In this document: piece by piece, positions 644 through 61,223 of the stretch
Layout of the letters: each line of letters begins with the position of its first letter
Position numbering within the stretch: the stretch's first letter is position 1
DNA from: a virus
Direction: 5' to 3' (one strand)
Length of the DNA: 64,000 bases
Virus record (IMG/VR): IMGVR_UViG_3300035670_000022
Coordinates: 32,001-96,000 of that record
The notes under the pieces: generated by a model
Told to the model about the DNA's origin: nothing
Databases searched by the model: none
The model's input: only the letters and a program-made list of their open reading frames with translations
Made by a program: the position numbers and the translations under genes

Positions 644-881
644 GATTTAGCTCCTTTAGTCCTTTTTTTGTTAGTCGATAAGGCGCGCGTCCAACTATGC
701 AGTCCTTGCGTCTCAGACTTTCTAGTAGAGCCACGGTCTTTTCATGGGAAAAGCCGCAGTCTACAGGAAAGCCTAGTTCTTTATCCTGGGGAAAGGCGCT
801 AAGAACGAGATACTCTTCTTCACTTAGAGTGCTGAATCCGTATCCTTTCAAAGCAGCACCTCCACACAAGTTGGATGCCAA
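591..881 (-). CDS. Small winged-helix-like protein inserted between the two polA parts
   Basis: 96 aa. LSEEEYLVL...LLESLRRKDCI...YRLTKKG resembles a wHTH wing. Overlaps both polA parts. Confidence 0.6.
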   Translation of the reverse strand: MASNLCGGAALKGYGFSTLSEEEYLVLSAFPQDKELGFPVDCGFSHEKTVALLESLRRKDCIVGRAPYRLTKKGLKELNRGIHQNASKPEDGTCST

Positions 882-3290: not shown

Positions 3291-3780
3291 TTTTGTGTAG
3301 TGAAATTTTTAATCTGGCTAGTATGTCTGTGAATGTTCCTTCTTCAAGCATATAGACGGTTTGTCGTGTGCCTAAAGGGGTCTCTATCTCTATAGCGTAG
3401 ACGTCTATACCTTGTTTCTTACCTTTGGTTAGTTCTTCCCAAGTCAGGTTCCAGCTCTTTCTGCTGCCCCGACGTTTAACCTCTACTCGTAGATCTTCTA
3501 ACACGCATAGATCTCCGTCTCCCAGAGCGGCGCCGCTTCTTAATGTCTGTTTTGCGATTTGCCTCTCTACTGTTTTTTCTGTTTGTTTAGCTTGTCGCTG
3601 AAGACGCCGATTGGTTCTAACTCTGTCCTCACAGGGATGGGTAGCCAAGTGTTGCTCTTCGTTTATAGGGTCATAGTGTAACGTCTTTGCCCTAGGAACC
3701 ATAGCTTTGCACCGTCTACAACGGATCATAGCATGGGAACAATTATTGTAAAACTCATCGGGACAGGATGCTAACGACAT
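3253..3780 (-). CDS. PD-(D/E)XK nuclease, Holliday-junction-resolvase-like, with Cys-rich N-terminus
   Basis: E...SGA..GDGDL...VEVK pattern; adjacent to recA. Confidence 0.6.
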   Translation of the reverse strand: MSLASCPDEFYNNCSHAMIRCRRCKAMVPRAKTLHYDPINEEQHLATHPCEDRVRTNRRLQRQAKQTEKTVERQIAKQTLRSGAALGDGDLCVLEDLRVEVKRRGSRKSWNLTWEELTKGKKQGIDVYAIEIETPLGTRQTVYMLEEGTFTDILARLKISLHKNERIQKTSTETL

Positions 3781-3810
3781 TAGACTTGGTTTAGAATTTG
3801 GAGTTTGTAA

Positions 3811-4239
3811 ATGACTTACACTGTTGTAGCTTCATCTCGGATTTATAGCTCCGATGATATCAATACGCAAAGAACAGACTTTAAGCTACCGTTGACGGAG
3901 TTTAGAGACGTTAGGACTGTTCAGCTGCCTAACGTTTTAAACTTTAACCTCGAAGAGAATACTACGTTTACGGTGGACTTGACGCAACACGGAACCTATC
4001 TGCGGATTCTAGCTTTGAAGTCCACTCGTCCAGTCGGATTGGAGTTGGTAACTGCTCAGGCTACCTACACTTATCCACCTATGACGTATTTTCAACAACT
4101 TTATGACAGTCCAGAACCTATGAGTGTCTCTCCTACTGCTTTGAACATTATTGTTCCGGCAGCGGCGACTGCTTCCATAAGTCCAGCCCCACCGAGATAC
4201 CCTAGGGCGCTGGTGGAGCTGTTTGTCTTTGCGGAGTAG
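3811..4239 (+). CDS. Hypothetical protein (opposite strand to the replication operon)
   Basis: 142-aa ORF preceded by GGAG and a TAGACT-N5-TAG motif. Confidence 0.6.
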   Translation: MTYTVVASSRIYSSDDINTQRTDFKLPLTEFRDVRTVQLPNVLNFNLEENTTFTVDLTQHGTYLRILALKSTRPVGLELVTAQATYTYPPMTYFQQLYDSPEPMSVSPTALNIIVPAAATASISPAPPRYPRALVELFVFAE

Positions 4240-15086: not shown

Positions 15087-15206
15087 ACAGCTTACTCTTA
15101 CTGGCTGCAGTCGTTGCTTGTCTAATTTCTGAACCGTTTACAATTTGAAGCAGTGGATTCCCCTCCACTGCTTTATTATTTTTTTGTGTCGTTTGGTATT
15201 TCAACT

Positions 15207-16154
15207 ATGAGCAGCTACTACATCACCTCTAAGCGCGATGGATTTGGACAGTATCTTAATGAGATAGGTATGTATCCGACTCTAACTAAAGAGCAGGAGC
15301 AAGAGTACGGCAAGAAAATTCAAAAGATGATGCTTTTTAATAAGCTGCTAGAGTCAATACCTCTAGATAGCGCAGTGCAGCTAAAGGCTCAAGCCTGTGC
15401 GTGCTCTGTGCAGGAGTTTAATCTTGTTTATCGACATGGTGCTATCTCTCGAGACCGGATGTTAAAACACAACCTAAAGCTGGTTGTGCATATTGCTCGT
15501 CGGTATAACAACAGGGGTGTTGATTTGGAGGATCTTGTGCAAGAAGGTAGCGTTGGGCTGATGCGGGCGGTAGAGAAGTTTAACCCAGACCTAGGGTTTA
15601 AGTTTAGTACCTACGCTGGGTGGTGGATAAAACAATCAATTATTCGAGCTATTGCTAATACCTGTCGATCTATTCGTCTTCCTGTTCATATACATGATCT
15701 TCTAAATAAGATTCGTCGAGTTGAGCGGGATTTTTTTCAACAAACAGGAAGGACGCCTAAGTTGTCAGAAGTTGCTGACATCATTGGTGTACCTGCGGGT
15801 AAGATCAGTCGAGTCCAGCAACATTCTAAAAATGTGTGGAGTTTAGATATAGAGAGTTATGACTCAGATGACTCACCTTCGATTGAGGAGTCGTTTGTTA
15901 ATACGGTTGCTACTCAACAAGCTGAATATCTATTTGATATCCAGCATCTTACTGAGTCGATGTTACAGGAGTTGGACGAGTTGGAGCTGGCAGTAATGGT
16001 TCGTCGTTACGGATTAAACACCGGAATTAATCTGTCTTACCAGTCCATAGCTGATGAATTGGGTTTAAATACCCAAACAGTCAGAAAGATCAGTCTTGGC
16101 GCCTTTGAAAAGTTAAAGAACCACGTGGTTCAGTCTGGTATCTCCATGTTCTAA
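15207..16154 (+). CDS. Sigma70-family (RpoD/group 2-like) RNA polymerase sigma factor
   Basis: YLNEIG.YP.LT.EQE, NLKLVVHIARRY, DLVQEG.VGL.RAVEKF.P..GFKFSTYA.WWIKQ, R.IRLPVH. ATG at 15207 preferred over GTG at 15153. Confidence 0.93.
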   Translation: MSSYYITSKRDGFGQYLNEIGMYPTLTKEQEQEYGKKIQKMMLFNKLLESIPLDSAVQLKAQACACSVQEFNLVYRHGAISRDRMLKHNLKLVVHIARRYNNRGVDLEDLVQEGSVGLMRAVEKFNPDLGFKFSTYAGWWIKQSIIRAIANTCRSIRLPVHIHDLLNKIRRVERDFFQQTGRTPKLSEVADIIGVPAGKISRVQQHSKNVWSLDIESYDSDDSPSIEESFVNTVATQQAEYLFDIQHLTESMLQELDELELAVMVRRYGLNTGINLSYQSIADELGLNTQTVRKISLGAFEKLKNHVVQSGISMF

Positions 16155-43452: not shown

Positions 43453-46400
43453 TTACGAGAATTGGGTCTCCATCCAATCCAAAGCGATATCTGAAGTGTG
43501 GTAGGAGTCGACTAGCATGCTCCACATTTGCTCTGATGTAAGTTCGGAGTTAAATTCACAGTCTGTTGCAAAGTAGACTAAATCAGCTTTAGGAAAGCGA
43601 CTAGGTCCGACATACAAAGCAGCTTTATGCTGAGCCGGAATAGCTGTTACTTTACCTTTGCTGACGTAATACATATGCAGAACTCCCGGGCGGTTTATAG
43701 TCAAACCCTGGCTTTTCATTAGAGTCATAGCAAAACAAGGGTGCGCCGGGATTTGTCGGAAGGTTCCTATGGGACGACCCGACTTATCTTTAGGCCCTTC
43801 AAAGTCTGCATAGTCTAGAGTGATGACTTGCTTAGTAGTGTCTAGACGCACGTTGATAGAGTTTTTACCTAGTTTGGTAACTACTCCTGTGCTTCCATTA
43901 GCTGCAATAAGTGCACCGCCTCCGTTCTGTATGTTCTTACGAATCATTACAGGCATATCGACGCAGAAAGTCATCTCTTCTTCAATTGGATTAAAGATAG
44001 TGACAAACTCTTGCTTCTCGCCGTCGTAGGCTTTCTTCAGATACCAGTCTCCGAATTTACCTGTGACGTGGGCGCGATACGACTTGTTGTCTGCACCGTT
44101 AGCGATCATCTCAGCGGTCTTGCGGCTATTGTGCCGTTTTACTCCGATATTGTTGAAGTAGATGTGGATAGCATCTTCCGGAGCTTTGGTGGTAACACTA
44201 GCATCAAAGCGGTCTTTGATTAAGTTACCTTTCACGCCGGTTAATTGCAGCCGGTCCATACGTAACAGGTTAAGACAATCTACCCAGGCTTTATCTCCGT
44301 CGGCACGGATATTGTGCTTCAGGTTTATCATGACGAAGTCTCGGCGCTTAACAAAACTGCCGTAGCTGACATTGTTCTTTGCCCCTTTGATGAACACAGG
44401 TTCAAAGAAGAGGGAGCCTTTAACAGGTAAGAACTGCATTGGATCCCCTACTAACAGCCATTGAATGTTGATACCTTCTTCTATCGCAGCATCTTCGATG
44501 ATGTTTAAGAAGCGGTTGTCTACCATGCTGACTTCATCAACGATGACCATGAGTGGGCGTTTACCCAGGTAGTTCTTGGCGCTCTTGAAGAAGCGACTGT
44601 CTTTAACGTCTGACTTGAGTAGGTGGTACTCTTCGTACTCGCTACACTTTTTGCTCTCTGTTTTTTCGAATCCCAATTTGAGACCGAACATTGAGTTAAT
44701 TGTGCCGTCCCCACCGACGTTCATCACTGAAGTACCTGTAGAGCCAACAATGACGTAGGGGAGTTTGAGTAAGTCAAAGATGTGACGCGCTACTTCGACA
44801 CTGTAAGACTTGCCGCCTCCGCCTACACCGGTCAGCATAATATTGCTGCCATTAATAGCTTCAGCTACGACGTCTAACTGTCGAGCAGTCATGGTTTCTA
44901 GAGCGGGTAGGTAAGACTCCTCGTCTATAGTCGCATTGACGTTGGTGATTGCGTCGATAGCGGCTTGTAGAGCCTCGGGCTTACGTTTACGGTCTGCTTC
45001 TATCTCCATTTGGACTTTGGTCTCCTCTTGCTTAGCTTTTTTCTGTGCGTGTTTGCGTACCTTTTTAAGTGAGGGTACGATCTTTTTGCCTTTGCTGTTG
45101 ACAACAGGCTTAACAGATCCTACCTCTACTGTTTTAGGTTCTACAGATTTCTGTTTTTCCGCAACAGGGGTGGGAGTCTCTACTTTAAGAGACACTGCTT
45201 TAGAAAGAGGGATGTCTTCTGGTTCATCCTCGGGGGCATACATCTCAAAATCAGAAGATGTATCTTCGTCCTCGATTTGATCTTCAGACTCTTCAGGCGC
45301 TGTTAATACGTCAGACGCGTCTTCTGTGGTCATAGGTTTATCTTCGACCACTTTTACCGATGACAAAGAGACAAAATTAGAGATAGGGATCTCGTCATCC
45401 ATCTCGTAGTCATCATCAAAGTATACGCCTGTAGACTGATCTTCTTCTGTTTCGGGAACAGCAGCGTCAAAGCTGTCGTCTTGAGTACTTGTACTTTTCT
45501 CTGTTTCTACTAGAACCACAGGAATAGACTTGTATAAGTCGGTGATCTTTGTATGTAGAGTCTCAGGCATATCAGGCACTGTCTCAAGAATCATTAGCAA
45601 CATAGCAGCAACTTGGTTACCAGGATCAGGAGTCGACATAGGCTCTGCTTTGATAGCGGCAGAAGTGGGTTCAATCACTTCCGGCTGGTTGGGAGTAGTT
45701 GTTACCTCAACAGCAGGTTGCTCGTCAGCTGCTTCATCAAGTTCTATTAGAGCAGCTAACAAGTCTTCCTTCTTGCCGTTTAACTTAGGAACGGTATGCC
45801 CCGCGTCACGGTACTCTTTTAGCGCCTCTTTGATATCAGAGTAAGACAGAGAGGAGTACACGTCAGAAACAGAAGAGTCAACATCAGCTTCGACTTCAGC
45901 TTCGACTTCAGCTTCGACTTCAGCTTCATCTACTGGTTTAAGAGCAGGGTGATTAGTGTCGACCATCCAGTTGAGCATCTCAATGATGAGATCGCCGTGG
46001 CAAGGCAAAGGTGCGCAGAAGCAGACTAAGTCTTTTTGCTCTGCGTAGAGGCGGGCTAACTCATTCAGCACAACGCTGTCATTAGCATCTACCTTCTCTT
46101 GTAGCCAAACACGGTACAGTTCATAACACTCTTTCCGTGTGCCGTGTTTTCCAACGACAGCCTTGTTTGCTAGAACGCTACCTTTCTTGCCTTTACCAGG
46201 ACGTCCTATATACTCACCAAATACGCTGTCACCGTTTTTGATGTTTAAGACTTTCATAGTGCAGTGTCCTTCAGAAGATGTAGGAGGCTCAGAGTCTGAT
46301 TTAGGTTTAACCATACGTACAGTGACGTTATAGCGGACACCTTCACCACCTTCGTTGCCTTCATAGCCGTGGCGGGCGTAGCGTTTGTTGCCATAGAAGA

Positions 46401-49400
46401 CAATCAAATCACCATCGCCTACCTCGTATTTCTCTCCGTCTATTTGGAAGATACCGCTCTGGCCGAAGCTGAAAGACACAATAGGAGCATCTACTTCTTC
46501 GTCTTTATCGACGTGAAGGTTCAGCTTCTGTGCGCCTGCATATCGATTAATTAGACAGGTTTGAGCCTCGTACCCATCAAAGATGTCCAGTTGGGCGACT
46601 ATCTTTTCAGCAGTCTCTTTTAGAATGTTAGGCATCTCAACCACAGGCGAACCAGACGGCTGAGTGTTAAGGTATCGACCTTTACCTTTATTCCATACCC
46701 AGAATTGCTGACCAGCACAGGTATAACTGTAGCTCTTGGCTGTAAAGCGCGTCTTCTCACCATCTTCAAAGGTCTCTTCAATGGCTGCTCGTAGCTCATC
46801 ATAGATTCCCTCGTCTTGGCAATAGGATTGCTGAATGTACAGCCCGTCTTCGGTGTATACCGTCAACTCTTCTTTGTCGGACTCGGTGCGAAGCGCGTCT
46901 CGAACTTTCATAAGAAGGACGCCTTGCATGTTCTTACCTTGACGTTTCTTATTCACGCCCCAGAACGTGTCCCAGGGAGAGAGGTGTACAAGGTCGATAT
47001 CTTCTGTTTCTAACAGTTGAGTACGAGCAGGCTCATGGCTGAATTTGCCAAGCAGGACCTCGTACATTACATCGACTTTTACTTGTTCCCAGTCTTTTCG
47101 TAGCCTTACTTTTGCACCTTTAGCCTTTGCCTGTTTACCGTTCATAGCCGCGAACTCTTTAATAAGAGCGTGGCTCGGGTTGAGCACTTTGGCACACTGA
47201 TAGGCTCCCTCTGCTGTTGCATACTCTACGCCTTTGTATGTACAGGGTGCCCCCAGGAAGTTACTAAACTCTTTATACGTAGGCGTATAGGAGTTAAATA
47301 AGATGCAGTCGCCTTCCCAAGTGTCTTTATCTGCCGGATGCTCTTGTTGGGCTTCTACTTCCTGTTGTGCTTTAAGCATAGCCACGTTGATCACAGTGGT
47401 GTTCTTAACACGTTTGATGTTCTTCTTGCTACCAGGAGAAACGCCGTCCCAGATGACGAGACTCTCATCACAGTTACGATGCATCTTTTCATCCCGAGCA
47501 GTGAAGTCACCGTAGACAGCATAGGTTTCAAAGTCACCTACATTGTTGCGGCATCCTTTGCGGGAAGAGTACCAAACGCGCACGTTGGTGACACCTTGCT
47601 CAAAGAGATAGCTTTGTACAAGCATGTCTACACCAGCAGCATCACCAACGTTGAAGTTAAAGCCCTGATCGATATAGCTGTCGATCACATCTAAGGCTTC
47701 TTCAGGTAGACGTTTGATAGAACGGCTGCCAGAGATCACCACTTGGGTGTGATTTACCTCTAACTCTTCCGTAGACGTATCCTCTTCAGTGTCAGAAGAG
47801 TCAACAGATTCACCGCCGTCTCCATCGTCGTTAGGCTCATCGTCGGTCGGCTCTACACCGCCGTCAGAGTCATCTTCATCAGAGTCGTCTTCTTCTTCTT
47901 CGGTAATACCATCGTTAAAGTTATGGATCACAGAGAAGAAGTTGTCTTTACTCTCTTCGACAGAGTGGATCTCTTTCAAGAAGAAGTTTAGGTCGGCATC
48001 AGACCACTCGAGAGTGCTGATTTGAGTGTAGTCGTACATCTCTTTACCGAGAACTTCGTCTAGCTGAGAGAGAGACATTAGCGGAACGTTGGTTTGAAGC
48101 ACTTTAGCCCCTGTGGGGTGAGACTTAAGTGCGTTTAGCCACGCTATACTTTCTTGATAGATGACAGTATCCCCAAAGTAGAAGTTACCGCGGCCACCTT
48201 GGAAGATCGTATAAAGCAAGTAGGAAATCCCGTAGGTGGGGGTCTCTTTACCTCGCTTAACTACGTAATAGTCTTGCAGGAGGTGCATAGCAATTGTTAC
48301 CTCTTCCGCTAATTCGCAGTTAGCGCCGAGTTCAGCCAACGTTTCTTCTACTTTGTCCTCTAGGGCACGCTCTAAACGCATTTCTCCCAGCAGGGTTTCT
48401 AGAACTGTGCAGTTAGCAACAGCAACCTCATCGGTAACATTGCATTCTCGCAGGTTCAGAACCATGAGGTCGATCGTCTTGGTGCGAGGCATATCCAGAC
48501 GGGTGCTACGTAGACGATCATAGGCTTCTGCTACATCAAAGCGAATAAACTCGTCATCCCAGTTGGATAGGATTCCATGTAGCTCTTGAGTAACTTCAGC
48601 ATTGGCAAAGTCTTTAATCTTAACGGACTGTTTGCTGCAGCCGTCGTAGATAGATTTACCAAACATGATCGGCTTTAAGAATCGTTCCCAGAGAGATACA
48701 CCGCCGGGGCTGAATCCGCCGAGCATAATCTCGTACACTTCTGCCAAGACCAGCATGAGTTTGTTGATCTGAGTTTGACGATACTTGTCTAGCTCTAAAG
48801 GCACGAATGCACTTAGACCTTCAACACCGTCTTCACCAAACAAGTCCAACTTATCTAACTCGCCGATGATGCTAACCGCAAGCATACCGAGCATGTATGC
48901 AGCGTACATAACACCAACACCGACGTGCTGAATGCTGTATGCCAGGAAGTTGTATTTGACTAGATCTGAGCTGTTGATCATAGCCTTCTCTGGCAGTGCT
49001 TCTGCTAACTTGTTGATAACTACAGATGCATCTTTGTAAGACTTGATGGTGTAGTGGTCAGCAGCGTAATCCCCGCATGTGGGAGAGAACATGTCCATAC
49101 CTATAGCAGCGGAGCGCAGTTCACGAACCTTTTCATAGGTGGTGATGTGCTTAAGGCTCAGGTGCTTACAGTGAGTGATAAAGTGGTTATCACCATCATC
49201 GTCACCACCGTCTAGGTTGACAGACATAGCACTGACGCCGAATTGTACGGGGCTAATCTCGTACGCAAGAAGAGTATTGTCTTGAACCTCATCAGCAAAA
49301 GGTACACGTCGTTGTCCAAGATAGACCTCGACAGTTTCTTTACCGGTTTCGGTCTCGACTTCAACTTTCTCCCATACCTCTTCGATTAAACGAACCCGTT

Positions 49401-52400
49401 CAATCGGACCCATAGGCATAGGCGCACGGTTACCGCACGTAATTACACCTTCGGCTACAGACTGGCGGTCTAGAGGAATACCGCTACGTAGACACTCTTG
49501 ATATGGAGAGGAGACGACGTTGGTTTCTAGAATCCAGACTTCTCCTACAGGAATAGCAGGGTGACCGATACGCTTCGCACCGACTGCTTTATCGCCAGAG
49601 AAATACTTGCGGGAGTTCTTAGATGTAGCTAGAGAGTTAAGCACACCGCCGACCTGGTTAAGGGCGATCTGTTGCTTTTCGCTACCACCATTGATACACG
49701 GGATAAGTATTTCGAAGAAGAACATGGAGACGAAGTCCAAGTTATCATCGCTCTTGCGAGTCAGCTTAGAAAAAGCCAGCATGGCAGGGAGCCACATGGA
49801 CACTTTACCTTCTCCGGTTTCAAAGACGAAGACCATATCCTGAGTTGCTTCGGCAACCAGGCGGAAGAGGTTGTCTTGATGCGGATCAATCTGTCCAGGC
49901 TCAATACCGACTTTGCGTAGACGCTCATCCATAAGATCCTGACACTCGTTGCTGGTGTCATCTCCACCAAAGCAGATGCCTTCTTCATCAACGATGATGG
50001 ACACTACTTTGAGATTAGGATTAATGGTATTCCCAGCATTGAACGCGGCTAGCGCTTTAGCACGGTACAGCGCTTCTTTACCGCAGGACACCATACGACG
50101 CTGCTCAGCCAATACATCTTCGTCGTCCCCAGCTACAATGCTCAAGGACATGATATAAGGCAACAACTGAACGGAGGTCGTTACGGCTTCTGCTACCGTA
50201 GAAGACTCGAATAGCTCTACGTTGTAGAGTTGAGCTTCAGGTACGGAGAGGTACATTACGCCACGTTGTGCGACTTCTACCACTTTTCCGTCTTTAAGAA
50301 CAAAGGCGAGAATGTTGCTTTCCCACTCAATTTCTTTCTGCTCAGAGACTACGTAGAGGTTATCTCCTAAGTTGGCTAATTCAGGTAGGTACTCTAAATA
50401 GTTCTCTACGTGATACCACGCTGCCTTCCGTGCTTTTTCGTTCTCTTCGGTGTCAGGAAGTAATCCGGCGGCTACTTTCTCTTGGTAGAGGTCATACATA
50501 ACACGACCCATACCTTCAGCCTGTATCCAGTGAAGCCAGCGGGCTTGACCGAAGATGCTGTCGAAGTACTTATACATCTCATCATAGATACCAGCAGCAA
50601 CAGCAGCGGGCTCGATGATAAGCACGGGTTTGCCGTCGACCAGATTCTCGTGTCCTACCAACTGACGGTTGATGTCAGAGATATATTCACGAAGGGTCTT
50701 AACCACGTCTGTTTCTACTTCGTTGTAGAACGCAGTGTTGGCAATTATGAAGCACATCGCATAGCCCAAGTCGAGCTTAAGGCTATCTTGCAGGTGTAGT
50801 CCGTGTACAGTGATCTCGTCCGAGTTAAGGTCAGAGTTTAGATCATTGAACAAGATAGCAGGCGTAGCCGTAAAGAACTGCGACTTGTTAACACTACGAG
50901 ACTTCATATCAAACTCGCGGCGTTTGATGAAGTACTCGATGCTGAGATACTCAGTGCTGTTATCCATACCGACAACAACGCGCCAGCGGAAGTAGGTTAA
51001 CTGACCCTCTACACGGTGTTGATGGTAGATGGGAATCGTTCCGTGTACGCCGAAGAGGATCTCTTTACCTGTTCCGTTAACGAGCACCTCATCTTGCGGA
51101 GTGACATACATCCAGCCGTCTTCGCTCTCTACACTGTCCCAGGTGTTTTCGATCACACCGGTAACATTAGTTTGAGTAAAGTCGAACGGAGAACCGTCTA
51201 CTATATCAAACGTGTTACGGACAATTAGAATGCGTTGATCCGGGTTTGCTTCCGGTTTGTCTTTCTGTTCACCCAAGAACGCGGACATACCAGGCAGGTT
51301 AACGTGGCTCGGCGCATAGGCAGTCTTATCTAACCAGCCGTAGGTGGCATACTTCTGGTCGATAAGTTTAGCCGCAGAAGGCTGCTCGTCTTTGACGCTC
51401 TCAGCTTGAGCCATCCACAAAGACACCCGCTTCAGGAGTTTCTTCGCCTTCAACGAGTTGACGATTACTTTTCCTGCTTCGATTTCGCAGCCAAAGTTGC
51501 TGACGATCTTAGCGAACAGGTTCGGTGCATGCTTGCTGACCAAGTCTAGATTGACGTGACCCAAGGCACCAGCAACAAACTGTCCTTTGGTGTGGTGGAA
51601 GTCTAACCCATACTGCTCATGGGCCATTTCCATCACAATGTCCATCACTTCAGCAATTTCGATAGAGTCATCAAAGACAGCTGCAGTTTCGATCATTTGA
51701 AACTCTTCGTCTATGTCTGCCTCTACACCGCTGTAGCGTTCAGGTAGGACTTTAGCAGCCTTACCCTCTAGAGCAACCCACTTCCCATTACTGTTCAGCG
51801 GTGTGCGCTCTTTGAACATCACGGTGGAGAAGGTGTTGATGAGCAAGTGGTGTGCAGCACCGTTTTGGTCTAACACTCGGTCCGTAGTCATCTTAAAGAT
51901 GTTGCCCATCTTTTGCAGACATGACTTCACATTCTCTAATGTGGTAGAGAAAATGCCGGCGCTGCCAGACCAGTTAGAGAGGATAGGCAAGTACACGAGC
52001 CAGATGAAGTACATAAACATACTCAGGCTGGTGACTAACTTGATTTCTACCTCGTAGGGGCTGCCCTTAGGATCGGCTTTCTTCTCTTCTTTTGTCTTTT
52101 TACGTCCGTTGACAACAAGACAGCTATTGAAAGCACGACCACGCCAGTCATAGACAGTACCGTCGTCATCGAAGTAGAAAGCAGCAGCGCCGTCTATCTT
52201 AAGCGCTTTCATGCCATCTATCTCTACGAAGTCCAAGACTCCTTTGATATCGACAGCCTTACGGTTACGGCTCCGCTTTGTCTTCTTACCAGCGACTTCC
52301 ATCATGTCTTGAATGATGGTGATAACACCTTCAATCTCAGACAGTTGCCAGTCGTAGTCTAAGATTGGCATGTCGATGGTTGAGCAGGCATACTTGTCCC

Positions 52401-55400
52401 GCTCAGAGCAGAACCCACGTAAGTAGTAGGCTACTGCGTAAGCAGCTTTTTGAGCAGCACTACATTTCGTAGGGGGCTCTTGTCCCCGGAACAGCTCTTC
52501 AAAGACTGCCGTTTCGTTCAGCATCATGTCGTTTACGACTTCTTCTACTGTATAGAAGTCCTCGCTACGATTTCCGCTGGTCGGGTGATTTAACGCCTCG
52601 TACAGACTTTGTAGCTCTTCAGCGTAACCAGCTAGAACTTTGGGTTCTGCTTTAGCCGCAGGAGGTGTCGGAGGAGTAGAAGTGACAGGAGGAGTAGCGG
52701 GCGGAGCAGCTATTTTAGAAGGAGTAGAAGTAGCTACTTTAGAAGGAGTAGACTTTGTCACTTCCGCTTTAGACTTCACGCGACGACGACCACTCTTAGG
52801 TAGAGAAGTAGTAGTCTTAGCAGAGCGCTCTAAGAACGTGAAGTAGTTGTTATCGCTCCGGGGAGTTTCGAAGTCGATTAACTCTTCTACTACATCGCAC
52901 GGAACGAAGTAGGCTTCAATCCGGTCGCAGTACGGACGGTATTGTCCTTGACTGAGAACACCGTTCTCGTCTGGACGACGATTATCCGTCAGAATATCTA
53001 CTCGTCCGACGAGAAGCAAATAGTATTGCTCCACTTCTAACCCAGGGATGCCTCCATGTTCGCTCTGCAGGTTATCTAACGAGTTGTGGACAACGATCGT
53101 TTGCCCATGTTTTTCTAGAGCGGAAACAAACCGTGTATTTCCTGTGTACACGGCTTTACGGATGATGTTCCGAACGGAAGAAGCGGTAGCGCCTGCTTCC
53201 GCACGACCTGCGACTTTGTCTTTAAGGTCGTGCTCGTTATTAACCAACGACTCGAAGTTCATATGGTGCGACACCTTGTCGTTAAACACCACATTTTCGA
53301 TGTTGGTGTAGGCAGCATCGCGGAACTGCCAACTTGCCTTCTTGGCGTTGGCGATCGGAGCATACAAACGAGCCGGGGTCGCTCCGATAGTAGAAGCAGT
53401 CCAACCTTCTTTAGCTTCTTGTTTGTAGTCGAAGCCTAAGAAGTTGCTGATGGGCAGCACCCGATGTTTGCTGTCGTCCGCCGCAGCATATAACTCGGCA
53501 TAGTGCGGTTTTGCTTTCGGCACAGGGTTAAAGTGTGCGTTAGCGTTACACCGCTGCTCTCCGTAGCGACAGAGGACTACATAGAGAGGATCGCTCTCTT
53601 GAATGGGAGCTGCGTCTACGTGCATTAATGTGAACGCAGGGATGCAACCCATCTCTTCAGGAGACTTAGTAAAGTGCATAGGAGCACCTACTTTTATCTC
53701 CATGTTTTTGTTTGCGCTATTACTGGTGCGACGCTTCATTGTTTGCTCCTTATTAATGGTAGCCAGTCCTATTTCTAGGGGTGTTACGCCTAGTTCGCTG
53801 ACAATGTCAGACCATTTAGATCCGTTTGTCAGCAAGGACCGAATGTTGCTTGCTGTCTCAGCGTCTACCAAGTCAGCTGGGTCAAAATGACCAGCACGGT
53901 AGACCTCCAGCAAATAGCTGGCGACAGTATCATCCTTGGTCTCACTCTTCGCCTCCTTACGGTAGGTAGATGCCAAGTCTGCTAGCATGTCCTCTAGCTT
54001 TTCTTCTGTTTTCAAGACACGTGTCCAGATGTCAATCACGATCTTGTGACGATGACTTAGCTGATTTTGTTCAGCTTTTGGTTTTTCTGTCTTTTTACTC
54101 TTCTCTGTTTTTGCTACAGGCTGTTTGTTAGGCACCCCGTAGTTGAGAGCCACTTCTAGGGAAGTAACTCCCAATTCCGTCTCTAGGTCTTTATAGGCCA
54201 CTCCTTCTGCCTTCAGATCTTGAATCTGCTCGTGTATCTCTGTAGATACATAGGCAGAGCAGTCTACCAACCCAGCGTCGTATGCTTTCTTTAGATACCC
54301 GACGATGGTTGAGTATGCCGCCTCACTTTTGTTAATTGCTCGGTAGCGTCGGACTAAGGAGTCCAACTTCTGCTGCAGATCGACGTTTTTAGCGTCTATC
54401 TTCTCCCACAGTTCAGCTATCTGCTGAATTGATGATGGAGTTTTCTGTGCGGACGTGGTCGGAGTTCCTCGTTTTTTGGCATACTTACTCATTGGACGCG
54501 GAGTTTTGCTCCGCTTGAAGACCATAGTTGCCTCCGGTACACCCTCTGCCGATGCAGCACATCGTGCCTCGGCGAGAGCCATAAACTCGGCCGGTACGGC
54601 CACGGGTTCAGATTCTGAACCGTTCAGAATCTCAGCCATGATGGCTGTCCCTGCGGCGTAGGCGGCTTCTGCCTTTTGTTCTTCCGTCTTATTGGCTAGG
54701 TAGACGGTTTTGTCTACCTTTTTGATGTTGCCAATCATCTTCCGACCTTCCGCCGCCCGGCGACGGTTTTGGATAGCGAGAGGCAACTCCGCCTCCTCTT
54801 GGGCGCGAAGGGCCCGTTGGCGACGGACTACAGAAGCCGGGATGGGGGCCTCGGTGCCGTTCGCCAACCAAATGGCGTTGTTACCTGCACGGAGGGCAGC
54901 GGACTTAGCGGCTTTGGTGATGACCGCATACTTAGCCGCCCGCTCGGATGCAATGTAAGCAGCCAGGAGTTTAGCCTCCGCCCGACGTTGGGCTTTGGCT
55001 AGTTGCTTCTCATACCCGGACTTAGTCTGGGGTTTGAGGTTACGGCGTTGTACCGCTTTGTTGCGACGTTGACGTTTAACCCGCTGGGTGCGGGCAATTG
55101 ATTGATTCACAGTCATTGATTTACGGACACGACGACGTGCCCGGGTAGAGGTGGTACCAACAGTGGTAGCGATGTCGGCAATGACATCAGCTACGGCGAC
55201 CATTACGGTCACGTTGGCATAGGCAAAAGTGCCCACACCGCCTGCACGTTTTTGTGCAGTGCCTTTGCGGGGGGCAGTGAGACGGAGAACCGCGTCCAAG
55301 GTGAATGCGGCACGGTTAGCCGTGCGGCGCTCAGTGTAGTGAGCAGAGATGACATCAGAGATGTCATTGGCTACGGCACCAGCGAATGCCATAGTAGCAG

Positions 55401-56001
55401 CGGTAGTGAGGGTAGCAGGGGCAAAGCGTACAACTTTGTGCGCAGTGTAGACACGGGGAGCACCCGTGGGGGTGCTGACGGTGTGGGTAGGGGCAACCCA
55501 GGAGGGTGCCGGAGTGGTGAATACACCTTTGAATCCGGGGGCAGCTTGCTTAGGAGCAGCTTTGGGAGCCCACACTACACGAGTGTTCCAAGCTGCTGCT
55601 TGGGCTGCCATAGGGTCAGCAACACCCCATCCTTTGATCTCCGCCATGCGGAGGTCAATATCACCAGCAGCGGTGATAGCGTCAGCGGTAGCTACAGCGG
55701 CAGCTACAGAAGAGGAAGCAGGAGCCTTGTAGCCAGTCCAGGTGCGGACTACATCCACCTTCTTGCCTTTCTTCTGCACGTGTACGTGCACTTTCCCGTA
55801 GTAGGAAAGGAACTCTTGGCGGGGTAGGCGGGCACCTACCGCAGAGTTCTTAATTACAGCGCCGGCGTTCCAGCGTTGGCTGGAACGGCTCCAGCTGTTA
55901 GTGTGTACGGTGCGCGGGGAGACCTCACGGACAGCTTGCTGAATCGAGCGAGCGAAGAAAGAGATAACGGAAACGGAAACGGACATTTTGAAGTTAGACA
56001 T
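43453..56001 (-). CDS. 4182-aa polyvalent protein: 2x HTH, putative single-chain two-barrel RNA polymerase, SLOG, NADAR, AlkB-like dioxygenase, DUF4326 and Pif1-like SF1 helicase
   Basis: DMKSRSVNK (~50881-50910), NRAP (49420-49431), GGDDDGD (49189-49209). ISGSR..VGDAAGVD; FSNF..TAEGAYQ..WG..GKNMQG.LLM.VR; LINRY..HVD..HG..RYNVTVR; YIGRP..LVCFCAPLPCHGD; GVGGGGKS, DEVSM, GDPMQF, KSQGLT. Confidence 0.85.
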   Translation of the reverse strand: MSNFKMSVSVSVISFFARSIQQAVREVSPRTVHTNSWSRSSQRWNAGAVIKNSAVGARLPRQEFLSYYGKVHVHVQKKGKKVDVVRTWTGYKAPASSSVAAAVATADAITAAGDIDLRMAEIKGWGVADPMAAQAAAWNTRVVWAPKAAPKQAAPGFKGVFTTPAPSWVAPTHTVSTPTGAPRVYTAHKVVRFAPATLTTAATMAFAGAVANDISDVISAHYTERRTANRAAFTLDAVLRLTAPRKGTAQKRAGGVGTFAYANVTVMVAVADVIADIATTVGTTSTRARRRVRKSMTVNQSIARTQRVKRQRRNKAVQRRNLKPQTKSGYEKQLAKAQRRAEAKLLAAYIASERAAKYAVITKAAKSAALRAGNNAIWLANGTEAPIPASVVRRQRALRAQEEAELPLAIQNRRRAAEGRKMIGNIKKVDKTVYLANKTEEQKAEAAYAAGTAIMAEILNGSESEPVAVPAEFMALAEARCAASAEGVPEATMVFKRSKTPRPMSKYAKKRGTPTTSAQKTPSSIQQIAELWEKIDAKNVDLQQKLDSLVRRYRAINKSEAAYSTIVGYLKKAYDAGLVDCSAYVSTEIHEQIQDLKAEGVAYKDLETELGVTSLEVALNYGVPNKQPVAKTEKSKKTEKPKAEQNQLSHRHKIVIDIWTRVLKTEEKLEDMLADLASTYRKEAKSETKDDTVASYLLEVYRAGHFDPADLVDAETASNIRSLLTNGSKWSDIVSELGVTPLEIGLATINKEQTMKRRTSNSANKNMEIKVGAPMHFTKSPEEMGCIPAFTLMHVDAAPIQESDPLYVVLCRYGEQRCNANAHFNPVPKAKPHYAELYAAADDSKHRVLPISNFLGFDYKQEAKEGWTASTIGATPARLYAPIANAKKASWQFRDAAYTNIENVVFNDKVSHHMNFESLVNNEHDLKDKVAGRAEAGATASSVRNIIRKAVYTGNTRFVSALEKHGQTIVVHNSLDNLQSEHGGIPGLEVEQYYLLLVGRVDILTDNRRPDENGVLSQGQYRPYCDRIEAYFVPCDVVEELIDFETPRSDNNYFTFLERSAKTTTSLPKSGRRRVKSKAEVTKSTPSKVATSTPSKIAAPPATPPVTSTPPTPPAAKAEPKVLAGYAEELQSLYEALNHPTSGNRSEDFYTVEEVVNDMMLNETAVFEELFRGQEPPTKCSAAQKAAYAVAYYLRGFCSERDKYACSTIDMPILDYDWQLSEIEGVITIIQDMMEVAGKKTKRSRNRKAVDIKGVLDFVEIDGMKALKIDGAAAFYFDDDGTVYDWRGRAFNSCLVVNGRKKTKEEKKADPKGSPYEVEIKLVTSLSMFMYFIWLVYLPILSNWSGSAGIFSTTLENVKSCLQKMGNIFKMTTDRVLDQNGAAHHLLINTFSTVMFKERTPLNSNGKWVALEGKAAKVLPERYSGVEADIDEEFQMIETAAVFDDSIEIAEVMDIVMEMAHEQYGLDFHHTKGQFVAGALGHVNLDLVSKHAPNLFAKIVSNFGCEIEAGKVIVNSLKAKKLLKRVSLWMAQAESVKDEQPSAAKLIDQKYATYGWLDKTAYAPSHVNLPGMSAFLGEQKDKPEANPDQRILIVRNTFDIVDGSPFDFTQTNVTGVIENTWDSVESEDGWMYVTPQDEVLVNGTGKEILFGVHGTIPIYHQHRVEGQLTYFRWRVVVGMDNSTEYLSIEYFIKRREFDMKSRSVNKSQFFTATPAILFNDLNSDLNSDEITVHGLHLQDSLKLDLGYAMCFIIANTAFYNEVETDVVKTLREYISDINRQLVGHENLVDGKPVLIIEPAAVAAGIYDEMYKYFDSIFGQARWLHWIQAEGMGRVMYDLYQEKVAAGLLPDTEENEKARKAAWYHVENYLEYLPELANLGDNLYVVSEQKEIEWESNILAFVLKDGKVVEVAQRGVMYLSVPEAQLYNVELFESSTVAEAVTTSVQLLPYIMSLSIVAGDDEDVLAEQRRMVSCGKEALYRAKALAAFNAGNTINPNLKVVSIIVDEEGICFGGDDTSNECQDLMDERLRKVGIEPGQIDPHQDNLFRLVAEATQDMVFVFETGEGKVSMWLPAMLAFSKLTRKSDDNLDFVSMFFFEILIPCINGGSEKQQIALNQVGGVLNSLATSKNSRKYFSGDKAVGAKRIGHPAIPVGEVWILETNVVSSPYQECLRSGIPLDRQSVAEGVITCGNRAPMPMGPIERVRLIEEVWEKVEVETETGKETVEVYLGQRRVPFADEVQDNTLLAYEISPVQFGVSAMSVNLDGGDDDGDNHFITHCKHLSLKHITTYEKVRELRSAAIGMDMFSPTCGDYAADHYTIKSYKDASVVINKLAEALPEKAMINSSDLVKYNFLAYSIQHVGVGVMYAAYMLGMLAVSIIGELDKLDLFGEDGVEGLSAFVPLELDKYRQTQINKLMLVLAEVYEIMLGGFSPGGVSLWERFLKPIMFGKSIYDGCSKQSVKIKDFANAEVTQELHGILSNWDDEFIRFDVAEAYDRLRSTRLDMPRTKTIDLMVLNLRECNVTDEVAVANCTVLETLLGEMRLERALEDKVEETLAELGANCELAEEVTIAMHLLQDYYVVKRGKETPTYGISYLLYTIFQGGRGNFYFGDTVIYQESIAWLNALKSHPTGAKVLQTNVPLMSLSQLDEVLGKEMYDYTQISTLEWSDADLNFFLKEIHSVEESKDNFFSVIHNFNDGITEEEEDDSDEDDSDGGVEPTDDEPNDDGDGGESVDSSDTEEDTSTEELEVNHTQVVISGSRSIKRLPEEALDVIDSYIDQGFNFNVGDAAGVDMLVQSYLFEQGVTNVRVWYSSRKGCRNNVGDFETYAVYGDFTARDEKMHRNCDESLVIWDGVSPGSKKNIKRVKNTTVINVAMLKAQQEVEAQQEHPADKDTWEGDCILFNSYTPTYKEFSNFLGAPCTYKGVEYATAEGAYQCAKVLNPSHALIKEFAAMNGKQAKAKGAKVRLRKDWEQVKVDVMYEVLLGKFSHEPARTQLLETEDIDLVHLSPWDTFWGVNKKRQGKNMQGVLLMKVRDALRTESDKEELTVYTEDGLYIQQSYCQDEGIYDELRAAIEETFEDGEKTRFTAKSYSYTCAGQQFWVWNKGKGRYLNTQPSGSPVVEMPNILKETAEKIVAQLDIFDGYEAQTCLINRYAGAQKLNLHVDKDEEVDAPIVSFSFGQSGIFQIDGEKYEVGDGDLIVFYGNKRYARHGYEGNEGGEGVRYNVTVRMVKPKSDSEPPTSSEGHCTMKVLNIKNGDSVFGEYIGRPGKGKKGSVLANKAVVGKHGTRKECYELYRVWLQEKVDANDSVVLNELARLYAEQKDLVCFCAPLPCHGDLIIEMLNWMVDTNHPALKPVDEAEVEAEVEAEVEADVDSSVSDVYSSLSYSDIKEALKEYRDAGHTVPKLNGKKEDLLAALIELDEAADEQPAVEVTTTPNQPEVIEPTSAAIKAEPMSTPDPGNQVAAMLLMILETVPDMPETLHTKITDLYKSIPVVLVETEKSTSTQDDSFDAAVPETEEDQSTGVYFDDDYEMDDEIPISNFVSLSSVKVVEDKPMTTEDASDVLTAPEESEDQIEDEDTSSDFEMYAPEDEPEDIPLSKAVSLKVETPTPVAEKQKSVEPKTVEVGSVKPVVNSKGKKIVPSLKKVRKHAQKKAKQEETKVQMEIEADRKRKPEALQAAIDAITNVNATIDEESYLPALETMTARQLDVVAEAINGSNIMLTGVGGGGKSYSVEVARHIFDLLKLPYVIVGSTGTSVMNVGGDGTINSMFGLKLGFEKTESKKCSEYEEYHLLKSDVKDSRFFKSAKNYLGKRPLMVIVDEVSMVDNRFLNIIEDAAIEEGINIQWLLVGDPMQFLPVKGSLFFEPVFIKGAKNNVSYGSFVKRRDFVMINLKHNIRADGDKAWVDCLNLLRMDRLQLTGVKGNLIKDRFDASVTTKAPEDAIHIYFNNIGVKRHNSRKTAEMIANGADNKSYRAHVTGKFGDWYLKKAYDGEKQEFVTIFNPIEEEMTFCVDMPVMIRKNIQNGGGALIAANGSTGVVTKLGKNSINVRLDTTKQVITLDYADFEGPKDKSGRPIGTFRQIPAHPCFAMTLMKSQGLTINRPGVLHMYYVSKGKVTAIPAQHKAALYVGPSRFPKADLVYFATDCEFNSELTSEQMWSMLVDSYHTSDIALDWMETQFS
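54096..54109 (-). promoter_or_regulatory. Intragenic copy of the putative phage promoter
   Basis: Exact AACAGAGAAGAGTA inside the giant ORF, upstream of TAAGGAG-N6-ATG at 53739. Confidence 0.55.
54613..54629. promoter_or_regulatory. 17-bp palindrome TTCTGAACnGTTCAGAA, copy 3 (intragenic)
   Basis: Arms extend to 10 bp (54611-54631). Confidence 0.5.
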
Positions 56002-56113
56002 AATAAATGCGCCCCTAATATGGCGCTTTAAGGTTTTTATTTAGACACTTCACTTTTGAGAGGCTGTGAGAACCTACAACGACTAATACGCCTCGTTGCT
56101 GGCAAGACAGCTT

Positions 56114-57566: not shown

Positions 57567-57636
57567 TAGAGGCCGGGGTAAAGAAGAGTCCGGATGTTCC
57601 TCGTAAAAAGGTGCCCCCTCTATATAGAGGGGGCAC
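57567..57636 (-). repeat. Hairpin/T-run/leader module (26-bp perfect palindrome plus a 42-nt leader repeated at 59868-59909)
   Basis: GTGCCCCCTCTATATAGAGGGGGCAC at 57611-57636; leader 38/42 identical to the second copy. Confidence 0.75.
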
Positions 57637-57809: not shown

Positions 57810-59183
57810 CTATATACGATTAAGCTCTACCATCGGTGGAGGTCCTGCGCGTCGGGACATCTCTGCGAGGACAACCTCGTGGCGGATTTGACGCTGCCAT
57901 GAGTATGAGTCGCAGAAGCGTTGGAAGTACACTAAACGATTGATGAGTGCACGGTCATCTAGTGTTGCGTACTGTTCCTCAACCTCGAGGCGGAACATCT
58001 CTTCCACCGTAAGGGCCTGTACTATCTCCTGAGGAGCTCGAGACTCGAAACCGCCTAGGGGAGCTTCATATGCCTCCTCGTCGAAGACCTCCCAGCCCCG
58101 GTGGGCGAGGGAGTTTGCTGTGGTGACAGGTGGTGTCTGCCATCCTTCTTTCCACTCTTCCAGCCGACCCATATCGGGAGTGTATTCTGGACAGACCTTT
58201 AGCCACTCATCCATGTGGTCTACCCACGTTTTGATGAGTTTGAGATTGTCCAGTACCCCTTGTGCAGAGGAAGGGGAGAGGAAGGCACGGATCTCCACCG
58301 TGTTTTTGTTCCCCTCATTCAAGGCCACATATCGTGACTCTGAATATTGGCGATACTCGCACCACTTATTGGGATACCGCCCACACAGGAGGCTGATATA
58401 GGGAGTTACAGACCCATCAAACAACCCTCGTAGAAACTCGAGTTGTTCTTGAGTCAAGCCCTTACGGCTCAAATGCACGTGCATCCCAACCCCGGAGTGG
58501 GCGTCGAGAGTGGTATTAGCCGAGAGCAGCTTATCGAAGCTGCTTGCCACCTCGGTAATACGACGAACCATATCGTCATAGGTATAGGGGAGAGTGACAT
58601 ACTCCCCGTCTACCGACGAATCAGCTTTAAAGATGCCCATCCCGAGCAAAGGATAGAGGTCCTGCAAAGAGTAGTTGGAGTGATTAAACTCCAGCTCCAC
58701 ACCGTACAACAACTCTTTCGAGTTGATTACCTCCTCCCGTTTGTGGGAGTGAGCAAGAGACAAGACGTCCTTGCTGTAATTCCACACTTTCTGCTCGGGC
58801 TGAGCAATGTCTCCATACCGTACAGCGGGGACATACTGCTGAGCGGAGGGAAGCAAAGATGCCACCTCCTCTATACAGACCTCGATGAGATCTGACAGAA
58901 TATGGTAGGCCTCCCCGTTTACGCCCATCTCAGGTAGACGTTGCGTGTCATACCCTCCGCATTCGACTCCATTCTCATTCACCTCCATATAGAAGGAGTT
59001 GGAGAATTCGTTATCCCCGAGGGAGATAACGATGGTTTGGGCAGCAGCGTTGGAGGTAGATACGAAAGACATAATTGATCCTGGCACTATTGCAGTTCCC
59101 GCATAGGTTAATAACCTGTCTTCTTTTCCACCGTGTATGGACAGGTAAACACGACAGACTTTGTTTGGAATCGCGTCTGCCAC
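57810..59183 (-). CDS. Putative amidoligase (COOH-NH2 ligase type 2)
   Basis: YGVELEF, DSSV.GEYVT, GMHVHLS, RY.ALN...TVEIR.F. Confidence 0.75.
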   Translation of the reverse strand: MADAIPNKVCRVYLSIHGGKEDRLLTYAGTAIVPGSIMSFVSTSNAAAQTIVISLGDNEFSNSFYMEVNENGVECGGYDTQRLPEMGVNGEAYHILSDLIEVCIEEVASLLPSAQQYVPAVRYGDIAQPEQKVWNYSKDVLSLAHSHKREEVINSKELLYGVELEFNHSNYSLQDLYPLLGMGIFKADSSVDGEYVTLPYTYDDMVRRITEVASSFDKLLSANTTLDAHSGVGMHVHLSRKGLTQEQLEFLRGLFDGSVTPYISLLCGRYPNKWCEYRQYSESRYVALNEGNKNTVEIRAFLSPSSAQGVLDNLKLIKTWVDHMDEWLKVCPEYTPDMGRLEEWKEGWQTPPVTTANSLAHRGWEVFDEEAYEAPLGGFESRAPQEIVQALTVEEMFRLEVEEQYATLDDRALINRLVYFQRFCDSYSWQRQIRHEVVLAEMSRRAGPPPMVELNRI

Positions 59184-59336: not shown

Positions 59337-59363
59337 AAAAAAAGCCCCTCTATATAGAGGGGC
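59337..59363 (-). terminator. Terminator-like palindrome GCCCCTCTATATAGAGGGGC plus T-run
   Basis: 20-bp perfect palindrome followed by T7 on the minus strand. Confidence 0.65.
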
Positions 59364-59587: not shown

Positions 59588-59620
59588 AAAAAAAGCCCCT
59601 ACACCTAGTGGTGTAGGGGC
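59588..59620 (-). terminator. Terminator-like hairpin GCCCCTACAC/GTGTAGGGGC plus T-run
   Basis: Same stem recurs at ~61062-61090. Confidence 0.65.
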
Positions 59621-60537: not shown

Positions 60538-60616
60538 TTGATATGCACTGTCACAGGGCATGGATTAGCTCGGCTGTGATGGCATAAAAAAGGCCCCCTA
60601 GAAGGGGGCTATATTT

Positions 60617-61018: not shown

Positions 61019-61223
61019 TAGGAACTCCGGGGTGTGAAAGGTAATTAGCCCCATAAAAGGGGGCCCCTACACTGATTAGGTGTAGGGGCCAAAGAGAAGA
61101 TGAAGTCTTGCGGATTTATTGCAAAAACGGGTTCTGCATATGGGCAAGACTGTTATATGACCCTCTTAAAAATCGCGGCATATTTTCATTTCCTATACGC
61201 CCATTAGTACAAAATGTAGTAAT

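Follow-up and report, generated by a model that had tools for sequence, protein, structure and literature searches.

A predicted single-chain two-barrel RNA polymerase within a giant polyvalent protein of an uncultured cyanophage-like myovirus

The window analysed here is a stretch of 64,000 nucleotides, bases 32001–96000 of the 155,913-bp IMG/VR virus record IMGVR_UViG_3300035670_000022 (estimated completeness 88%). It contains a giant open reading frame (ORF) of 4182 amino acids (aa), designated P0001, on the minus strand. We consider it highly probable that aa ~1553–2450 of P0001 are a single-chain two-barrel RNA polymerase (RNAP) with a role in transcription; the phage thus very probably has a transcription enzyme of its own. 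In the structure prediction, this confidently modelled polymerase core corresponds to window positions 48652–51345. The analysis shows its predicted fold, its motif order and the conservation of all residues of the catalytic type, and a catalytically competent two-barrel polymerase is to be expected with hardly any reservation.

The source of the sequence is an uncultured cyanophage-like myovirus. The phage is contractile-tailed, with genes for a portal, a major head protein, a tail sheath, a terminase and large fibres, and its capsid protein is nearest (28% identity) to those of Microcoleus phage My-WqHQDG and the Microcystis Ma-LMM01 group, which hints at a cyanobacterial host. A homologue of 4038 aa, P0002, could be aligned to P0001 from residue 3 through to the end with ~48% identity, showing that the ORF and its start codon are real.

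Pfam, PHROGs and NCBIfam annotated only the C-terminal third of P0001 and assigned no family to the first ~2800 residues. A preliminary description, based on the nucleotide sequence, had pointed to the unannotated region (aa 755–2684, window 47950–53739) and had proposed that it hides a divergent single-polypeptide RNAP. Motif conservation and predicted fold support this proposal. The polymerase does not, however, extend over the full ~1900 aa as was suggested; it occupies about 900–1400 aa.

Motifs, conservation and predicted fold

An exhaustive HMMER search with aa 1550–2700 as the query against 1.84 billion cluster representatives yielded 49 relatives, 34 of which scored below 1e-10. Most are part of proteins of 1400–4500 aa, which the source databases name only 'hypothetical protein'. 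The core common to the relatives covers query positions 4–910 (aa 1553–2459), and there are relatives with only 20–30% identity. The matching parts were excised and aligned.

The catalytic loop is located within VNLDGGDDDGDNHF (aa 2261–2274, window 49180–49221), with GGDDDGD at aa 2265–2271 and DDDGD at 49189–49203, as had been described. G2266, D2267 and G2270 are each present in 44/44 relatives, D2269 in 43/44 and D2271 in 41/43, and the DxDGD motif, on whose conservation the preliminary description had made its proposal depend, is kept among the 49 relatives. The NRAP motif, found exactly where it had been placed, shows R2192 in 46 of 47 and P2194 in 47 of 47 sequences. The block SKNSRKYF...GEVWI runs from 49531 to 49623 (aa 2127–2157) instead of about 49535–49625; K2143 is kept in 41/46, and K2132, G2136, P2148 and P2151 are conserved as well. 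An A-K-R/P..P block is invariant or nearly so among the relatives.

Further upstream, FDMKSRSVNKS was confirmed exactly at 50881–50913 (aa 1697–1707). This first basic loop contains K1700 (39/39), R1702 (37/39) and K1706 (37/37), which are invariant in one of the alignments (A5), and E1696 is also conserved. Between the two regions, Q1912-R1913, E1932 (in ELFESSTV) and WLP2072 are conserved, and downstream of the catalytic loop Y2312-x2-D2315-H2316, V2362-G2363 and Y2423-E2424-x2-L2427-G2428. The motifs of P0001 exceed chance, since they are conserved in the homologues.

Placed side by side with reference enzymes from GenBank, P0001 has the motif layout of the beta' barrel. In Escherichia coli beta', a basic block ending in GLP is followed by NRAPTLHRLG and then by NADFDGD, and in P0001 SRKYFSGDKAVGAKRIGHPAIP is followed by NRAPMPMGPI and then by LDGGDDDGD. 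The R-x-P equivalents are NRAP in E. coli beta', NRRP in gp64 and FRNP in gp96 of phage P23-45, LRSP in YonO and YRIP in gp66 of crAss-like phage phi14:2. The E. coli beta basic loop reads GDKMAGRHGNKG, and KSRSVNKS corresponds to AGRHGNKG of beta. The N-to-C order of a beta-like part before a beta'-like part agrees with that of QDE-1, YonO and crAss gp66. The preliminary description erred in ascribing GGDxDGD to YonO-like enzymes, as YonO actually has FDNDGD.

The region aa 1550–2480 (931 residues) was folded with a 40-sequence alignment. The mean predicted local distance difference test (pLDDT) of the model was 88.5 and the predicted template modelling score (pTM) 0.87, with a pLDDT of at least 90 in 631 of the 931 residues. 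Both expected double-psi beta-barrels (DPBBs) were present: by the criteria of the DPBB superfamily the model contains a beta'-type barrel with the catalytic loop and an N-terminal beta-type barrel. The beta/Rpb2-like part is at aa 1550–1940, and the GDDDGD loop lies between model strands 704–707 and 723–728. The region following the catalytic barrel includes a YAADHY.IK motif, a 45-residue helix and the E.YE..LGG helices (candidate trigger-loop region). The long helix (aa 2344–2388, model 795–839), after which further helices follow, may be the counterpart of a bridge helix.

E-values in a Foldseek search of the PDB were weak (best 1.6e-3), but the best 50 matches consisted almost entirely of RNAP beta, beta', Rpb2 and QDE-1 chains. 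VIA-align, run on the Foldseek list, scored QDE-1 at 12.5 (286 residues, root mean square deviation 4.1, model 4–899), maize RDR2 at 11.5, Arabidopsis RDR2 at 10.1, P74-26 gp62 at 9.7, P23-45 gp64 at 9.6 and P23-45 gp96 at 9.0. Many beta'/Rpb1 chains scored about 9 over model ~585–880, and the beta'/Rpb1 alignments extend to model 880–931. The barrel stretch superposes on isolated DPBB domains too. Gp66 of phi14:2 (6VR4), YonO and archaeal PolD were absent among the structural matches listed, which is absence from a list and not the outcome of a direct test. An ESM-Atlas feature search returned helicase-like clusters (best 0.89); this was below the trust level and was not used.

Relation to known polymerases

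The best structural matches are the eukaryotic RNA interference (RNAi) polymerases Neurospora crassa QDE-1 and plant RDR2 (2J7N, 7Y7P, 5FSW, 7W82, 7ROZ). However, they have no detectable sequence similarity to P0001, and whole P0001 gave no Pfam match (E up to 0.1) to the eukaryotic RNA-dependent RNA polymerase (RdRP) family PF05183. The connector between the barrels is ~140 aa in QDE-1 and gp66 and ~390 aa in P0001. QDE-1 is of eukaryotic origin, whereas the P0001 polymerase is embedded in a 4182-aa bacterial-virus polyvalent protein.

Among phage enzymes, the Thermus phages P23-45 and P74-26 have a non-virion RNAP (gp64/gp62) and a tape-measure-fused virion RNAP (gp96) (8F72, 8F5M, 8H2M; 10.1101/2022.12.01.518664). 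Profile similarity of gp64 and gp96 to P0001 is limited to the catalytic loop: hhalign placed only GDxDGD on them. The fusion partners differ: a tape measure with a metallopeptidase in gp96, and a helicase, NADAR, AlkB-like and DUF4326 domains in P0001. The phage of P0001 also differs from P23-45 and P74-26 in having a contractile tail and cyanophages as nearest capsid relatives. Like gp66 of phi14:2 (6VR4), P0001 is giant and perhaps of the virion type, and a conserved Asp motif drew attention to its QDE-1-like two-barrel core. The gp66 motif is DFDID with Ile at position 4, in contrast to DDDGD in P0001 and Gly at this position in 44/44 relatives; gp66 is without fused helicase or repair domains, and hhalign finds no similarity between the two. 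YonO of Bacillus phage SPbeta, also a single-chain two-barrel phage RNAP, shares a DxDGD-type motif (FDNDGD) and an R-x-P motif (LRSP) with P0001, but is a stand-alone enzyme of 839 aa without profile similarity.

Several unrelated enzymatic domains are joined in the one P0001 polypeptide, as in polyvalent proteins. The polyvalent proteins of phages and conjugative elements surveyed by Iyer et al. (2017), including N4 gp50, likewise combine an early-acting polymerase and effector domains in one chain, and NADAR-type and helicase domains, both found in P0001, are typical members (PMC5512222). The survey lists RNAP modules only of the N4-like, T7-type single-subunit kind, joined to zincin peptidases; this type is unrelated to the two-barrel polymerase of P0001. 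The T7-like RNAP domain PF00940 was not found in P0001; a search of the genome was also empty, the control genomes being without such a gene. Pfam RNA_pol_Rpb1_2 was not found across the whole genome either.

Proposed role, delivery and alternatives

Helicase domains (AAA_19/AAA_30) were found in all 12 giant relatives scanned, together with 2OG-Fe(II) (2-oxoglutarate- and iron-dependent) oxygenase in four, DUF4326 in four, NADAR in three and amidoligase in one. By direct comparison with the parts of P0001, a helicase follows the polymerase in at least 25 of the 49 representatives, including relatives whose polymerase parts are only ~20–25% identical to that of P0001. A minimal form, polymerase plus PIF1-like helicase, is a 2319-aa ORF in a 190-kb IMG/VR viral contig. 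The constant core is thus polymerase plus helicase, and the NADAR, AlkB-like, DUF4326 and small alpha/beta domains are exchangeable cargo, a pattern that has been described for polyvalent proteins (PMC5512222). In the literature searched there was no paper on this family or on a two-barrel RNAP–helicase fusion.

By the example of cellular RNAPs and QDE-1, it is proposed that D2267, D2269 and D2271 hold the catalytic Mg2+ and that the K1700/R1702/K1706 loop of the first barrel contacts the nucleoside triphosphate and the 3' end of the RNA. The polymerase would make RNA on phage DNA, and the superfamily 1 (SF1) helicase would unwind the duplex and feed single-stranded template to it. Crass gp66 transcribes single-stranded or denatured DNA and not native duplex, and QDE-1 requires the helicase QDE-3 and RPA (10.1101/2020.03.07.982082). 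Because the helicase is constant in the family, and because QDE-1 and gp66 prefer or need single-stranded DNA, template supply by the helicase seems to us about as probable as its opposite.

The whole of P0001 may be packaged in the virion, be ejected with the DNA and start early transcription, and its NADAR and AlkB-like domains may undo host-inflicted modification of DNA or RNA; by analogy with other phages we give this course of events an even chance. The giant RNAP-bearing phage proteins N4 gp50, crAss gp66 and P23-45 gp96 are delivered in the virion, and the cargo-like accessory domains fit such delivery. Whether these parts add up to a self-sufficient injected machine, consisting of a QDE-1-like polymerase, a duplex-opening SF1 helicase and modification-stripping enzymes, is rather doubtful; in it, the helicase would perhaps help to reel in the phage DNA.

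Other genes and sequence elements bear on the transcription programme. A full-length sigma-70 factor (regions 1.2, 2, 3 and 4) is encoded between fibre genes (window 15153–16154, plus strand). A second giant ORF, P0051 (3989 aa, genome 99630–111599, minus strand), lies 3.6 kb past the window end, adjacent to and divergent from the portal gene. Eight relatives of P0051, some of which carry PLD-like domains (PF13091), share invariant LGDYDGDSFQ and RQGAP motifs, and P0051 is a candidate second two-barrel polymerase. Comparison of the P0051 and P0001 families by hhalign gave a probability of 2.7%, and blastp and hmmsearch between the giant ORFs found no similarity. A third giant ORF of at least 3525 aa (genome 145337–155913, plus strand) follows the terminase gene and runs off the contig end; it has neither a Pfam family nor a DxDGD motif.

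There are 13 copies of the 14-bp motif AACAGAGAAGAGTR in the window (0.06 expected), all on the minus strand, and 24 in the genome (22/24 on the minus strand). It is usually extended by A-A/C-A-A/G-G. Many copies lie 25–55 nt upstream of the ATG of replication and small genes, and two are inside the P0001 ORF. The motif is not sigma70-like, and its recurrence on one strand ahead of start codons makes it a candidate phage-specific promoter, in keeping with a polymerase encoded by the phage. The P0001 gene is not preceded by this motif; its ATG comes directly after a small GC hairpin, 8 nt upstream of the start codon. Between 43000 and 62500, 46 terminator-like sites were counted (16.7 expected), and the hairpin/T-tract elements could be terminators doubling as start elements. 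The P0001 polymerase, the second giant DxDGD protein and the sigma factor may form a three-tier transcription cascade.

A number of results weigh against a virion-delivered RNAP, or against parts of this interpretation. Neither Pfam (whole P0001, E up to 0.1) nor PHROGs nor NCBIfam gave any link to RNAP. Phmmer and the family profile against PDB sequences returned only noise and did not find QDE-1 or RDR. The preliminary description had proposed a comparison with known RNAPs; the structure search did return RNAP chains, but profile comparison by hhalign with YonO, phi14:2 gp66, gp64/gp96 and E. coli beta/beta' gave probabilities of at most 1% (0.1% for both YonO and gp66). The case for an RNAP stands on the predicted structure plus the motifs. 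Since no sequence method ties the region to any known polymerase, it constitutes a sequence family that is new among single-chain two-barrel RNAPs. The middle motif residue is Asp in P0001 and Phe or Tyr in most relatives. Since the phage encodes a sigma-70 factor, host RNAP is also used for part of the programme, and AACAGAGAAGAGTR might belong to the sigma-70 factor or to the second giant protein. As to packaging, the P0001 gene sits among minus-strand non-structural genes, outside the head and tail operons.

This gene position, on the same strand as the replication and small-gene blocks, would also suit a real two-barrel RNAP that is made after infection and transcribes middle or late genes like P23-45 gp64 and YonO. 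Such a non-virion enzyme would differ from a virion-delivered one in the delivery step only, the polymerase identity being common to both, and we regard it as a realistic possibility with somewhat less than an even chance. In that case, transcription of the early genes would fall to host RNAP, perhaps aided by the sigma factor of the phage, or to the second giant DxDGD protein. The presence of the sigma-70 factor, a second giant DxDGD protein encoded beside the portal gene and the second-best structural match, the non-virion enzyme gp62/gp64, are in its favour. However, the 4182-aa fusion with NADAR, AlkB-like, DUF4326 and helicase domains fits the polyvalent class that is predicted to be delivered with DNA (PMC5512222), whereas the known non-virion single-chain phage RNAPs are small (gp64 616 aa, YonO 839 aa). 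Moreover, the 14-bp motif upstream of the replication and small genes, and not of the P0001 gene, indicates another expression class.

The remaining alternatives concern the activity itself. A polymerase–helicase for replication or recombination, laying RNA primers or R-loops on unwound DNA, would follow the logic of a primase-helicase, and QDE-1-type enzymes do make short RNAs on single-stranded DNA with a helicase and RPA. A replicative role is nevertheless improbable: a DNA polymerase, a primase and two further helicases are already encoded by the phage, with an exonuclease, in a separate module; archaeal PolD is not among the structural matches listed, and all characterised phage two-barrel enzymes transcribe genes. 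Ribonucleotide reductase and thymidylate synthase are also encoded by the phage. An RdRP like QDE-1 and RDR2, copying phage or host transcripts, is very improbable in a double-stranded DNA myovirus with no known need for double-stranded RNA: P0001 has no Pfam RdRP match, its fused motor is a Dda/PIF1-type DNA helicase, and QDE-1 itself transcribes single-stranded DNA better than RNA. Lastly, the barrels may be no more than a relic in structure, or may bind nucleic acids without polymerase activity, with motifs kept for another reason, as GDFAGG at the catalytic loop of the fragment relative P0008 would suggest. We give this no more credit than an RdRP, as all catalytic residue classes are strongly conserved at 20–30% identity, which is unexpected for a relic.

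Further features and implications

The features of P0001 and the repeated sequence elements are listed in Table 1.

Table 1. Features of P0001 and sequence elements in the window
Feature	Residues (aa)	Window position	Strand	Basis or remarks
Giant ORF P0001, polyvalent protein	1–4182	43453–56001	-	ORF translation, homologue P0002
Arg/Lys/Ala-rich conserved N-terminal region	~180–430	54712–55464	-	Matched in 6–8 giant homologues; composition
Tandem repeat, ~100-aa helical unit	542–640, 669–765	53707–54378	-	blastp, copy against copy
Conserved extension upstream of polymerase core	~1070–1552	51346–52794	-	Covered by 8–17 homologues
Predicted beta-like barrel region, DPBB-B	~1553–1745	50767–51345	-	Model residues 4–196
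Basic loop K1700-x-R1702-x3-K1706, counterpart of beta R-H-G-N-K	1700–1706	50884–50904	-	Conservation
Second DPBB-B motif D1739-x2-K1742-x-D1744	1739–1744	50770–50787	-	Kept in 45/46, 45/46 and 43/44
Connector/insert between barrels, ~390 aa	1746–2130	49612–50766	-	Model and alignment
Predicted beta'-like catalytic DPBB-A	2135–2305	49087–49599	-	Model residues 586–756
Switch-2/GKR-like block SKNSRKYFSGDKAVGAKRIGHPAIPVGEVWI	2127–2157	49531–49623	-	Conserved K2132, G2136, K2143, P2148, P2151
N-R-A-P motif (R2192, P2194)	2191–2194	49420–49431	-	Conservation
Catalytic G-D-D-D-G-D loop (D2267, D2269, D2271), predicted Mg2+ binding	2266–2271	49189–49206	-	Conservation
Helical region after barrel	2306–2450	48652–49086	-	Model secondary structure
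Small alpha/beta domain, G-D-A-A-G-V-D motif	~2790–2900	47302–47634	-	Weak match to phrog_11222; present in 2 homologues
NADAR domain	2906–3038	46888–47286	-	Pfam PF08719, E 3e-24
AlkB-like 2OG-Fe(II) oxygenase	3089–3229	46315–46737	-	Pfam PF13532, E 1.7e-21
DUF4326 domain	3261–3341	45979–46221	-	Pfam PF14216, E 3.6e-14
SF1 helicase (Dda/PIF1/RecD-like), C-terminal	3496–4138	43588–45516	-	phrog_325, E 5.5e-39; AAA_19 and PIF1 (Pfam)
Copies of AACAGAGAAGAGTR		5656, 7924, 36717, 37842, 37897, 38994, 40739, 41210, 42301, 43347, 45492, 54096, 62327	-	
GC hairpins, then T-tract into ATG		56009–56026, 57611–57636, 59344–59363, 59595–59620, 60593–60609, 61062–61090	-	Often GCCCCT...AGGGGC

An Arg/Lys/Ala-rich stretch (aa ~285–440), kept in several giant relatives, precedes the tandem repeat, the copies of which are 34% identical over 99 aa (E 2e-13). 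The extension upstream of the polymerase core contains a nearly invariant K..K..KR motif (aa 1518–1525), and homology continues upstream of the modelled core, as far as aa ~1070 in many relatives and, among the closest, to aa ~860. The small alpha/beta domain is possibly SLOG/YpsA-like. The NCBIfam matches to the NADAR domain include a NADAR anti-phage model, and the NCBIfam AlkB models match the oxygenase domain below their own cut-offs. The Walker A motif of the helicase reads GGGGKS.

A gene with a weak PHROG match to amidoligase enzymes (window 57810–59183, minus strand) is located two ORFs upstream of P0001. This amidoligase-like neighbour and the Amidoligase_2 domain fused inside one giant relative suggest that neighbouring genes and fusions draw on a common accessory set. 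No related locus was found with the single protein P0001, and a broad alignment (A6) offered no conserved stretch that could be used; with a closer alignment (A7) as the query, one was found in IMG/VR. A relative on a 121-kb contig has a neighbourhood that matches that of P0001: in both, PhoH is encoded downstream of the giant ORF. Tblastn of aa 1550–2700 against 50,697 GenBank phage records gave no matches. The family profile did not match Microcystis phage Ma-LMM01 or Microcoleus phage My-WqHQDG, a search that was run without a positive control and is uninformative.

Single-chain two-barrel RNAPs concealed within giant phage proteins are already known as a kind of enzyme. Phage RNAPs with two barrels in one chain have been known from few lineages (YonO, crAss gp66, P23-45 gp64 and gp96), each found through a lone Asp motif. 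The P0001 family is another such lineage; it counts 49 representatives at 50% identity and is unrecognised by any annotation library. The literature searched contains no description of this sequence family, of its obligatory helicase partner or of the NADAR/AlkB/DUF4326 cargo. The polyvalent-protein class is extended to a second, unrelated polymerase type, and giant 'helicase/NADAR' ORFs of cyanophage-like myoviruses can now be annotated as polymerases.

The constant DNA helicase partner offers a testable answer to the question how QDE-1/gp66-type enzymes, which prefer single-stranded DNA, read duplex DNA. The P0001 polymerase is also a bacterial-virus relative with a fold nearer to the RNAi polymerases of eukaryotes than to other DNA-dependent enzymes, and it is relevant to the hypothesis that those RNAi polymerases arose from a phage. 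As its nearest structural kin are eukaryotic RNAi polymerases, which are likewise helicase-dependent, the family could be the closest bacterial-virus model yet for their proposed phage ancestor.

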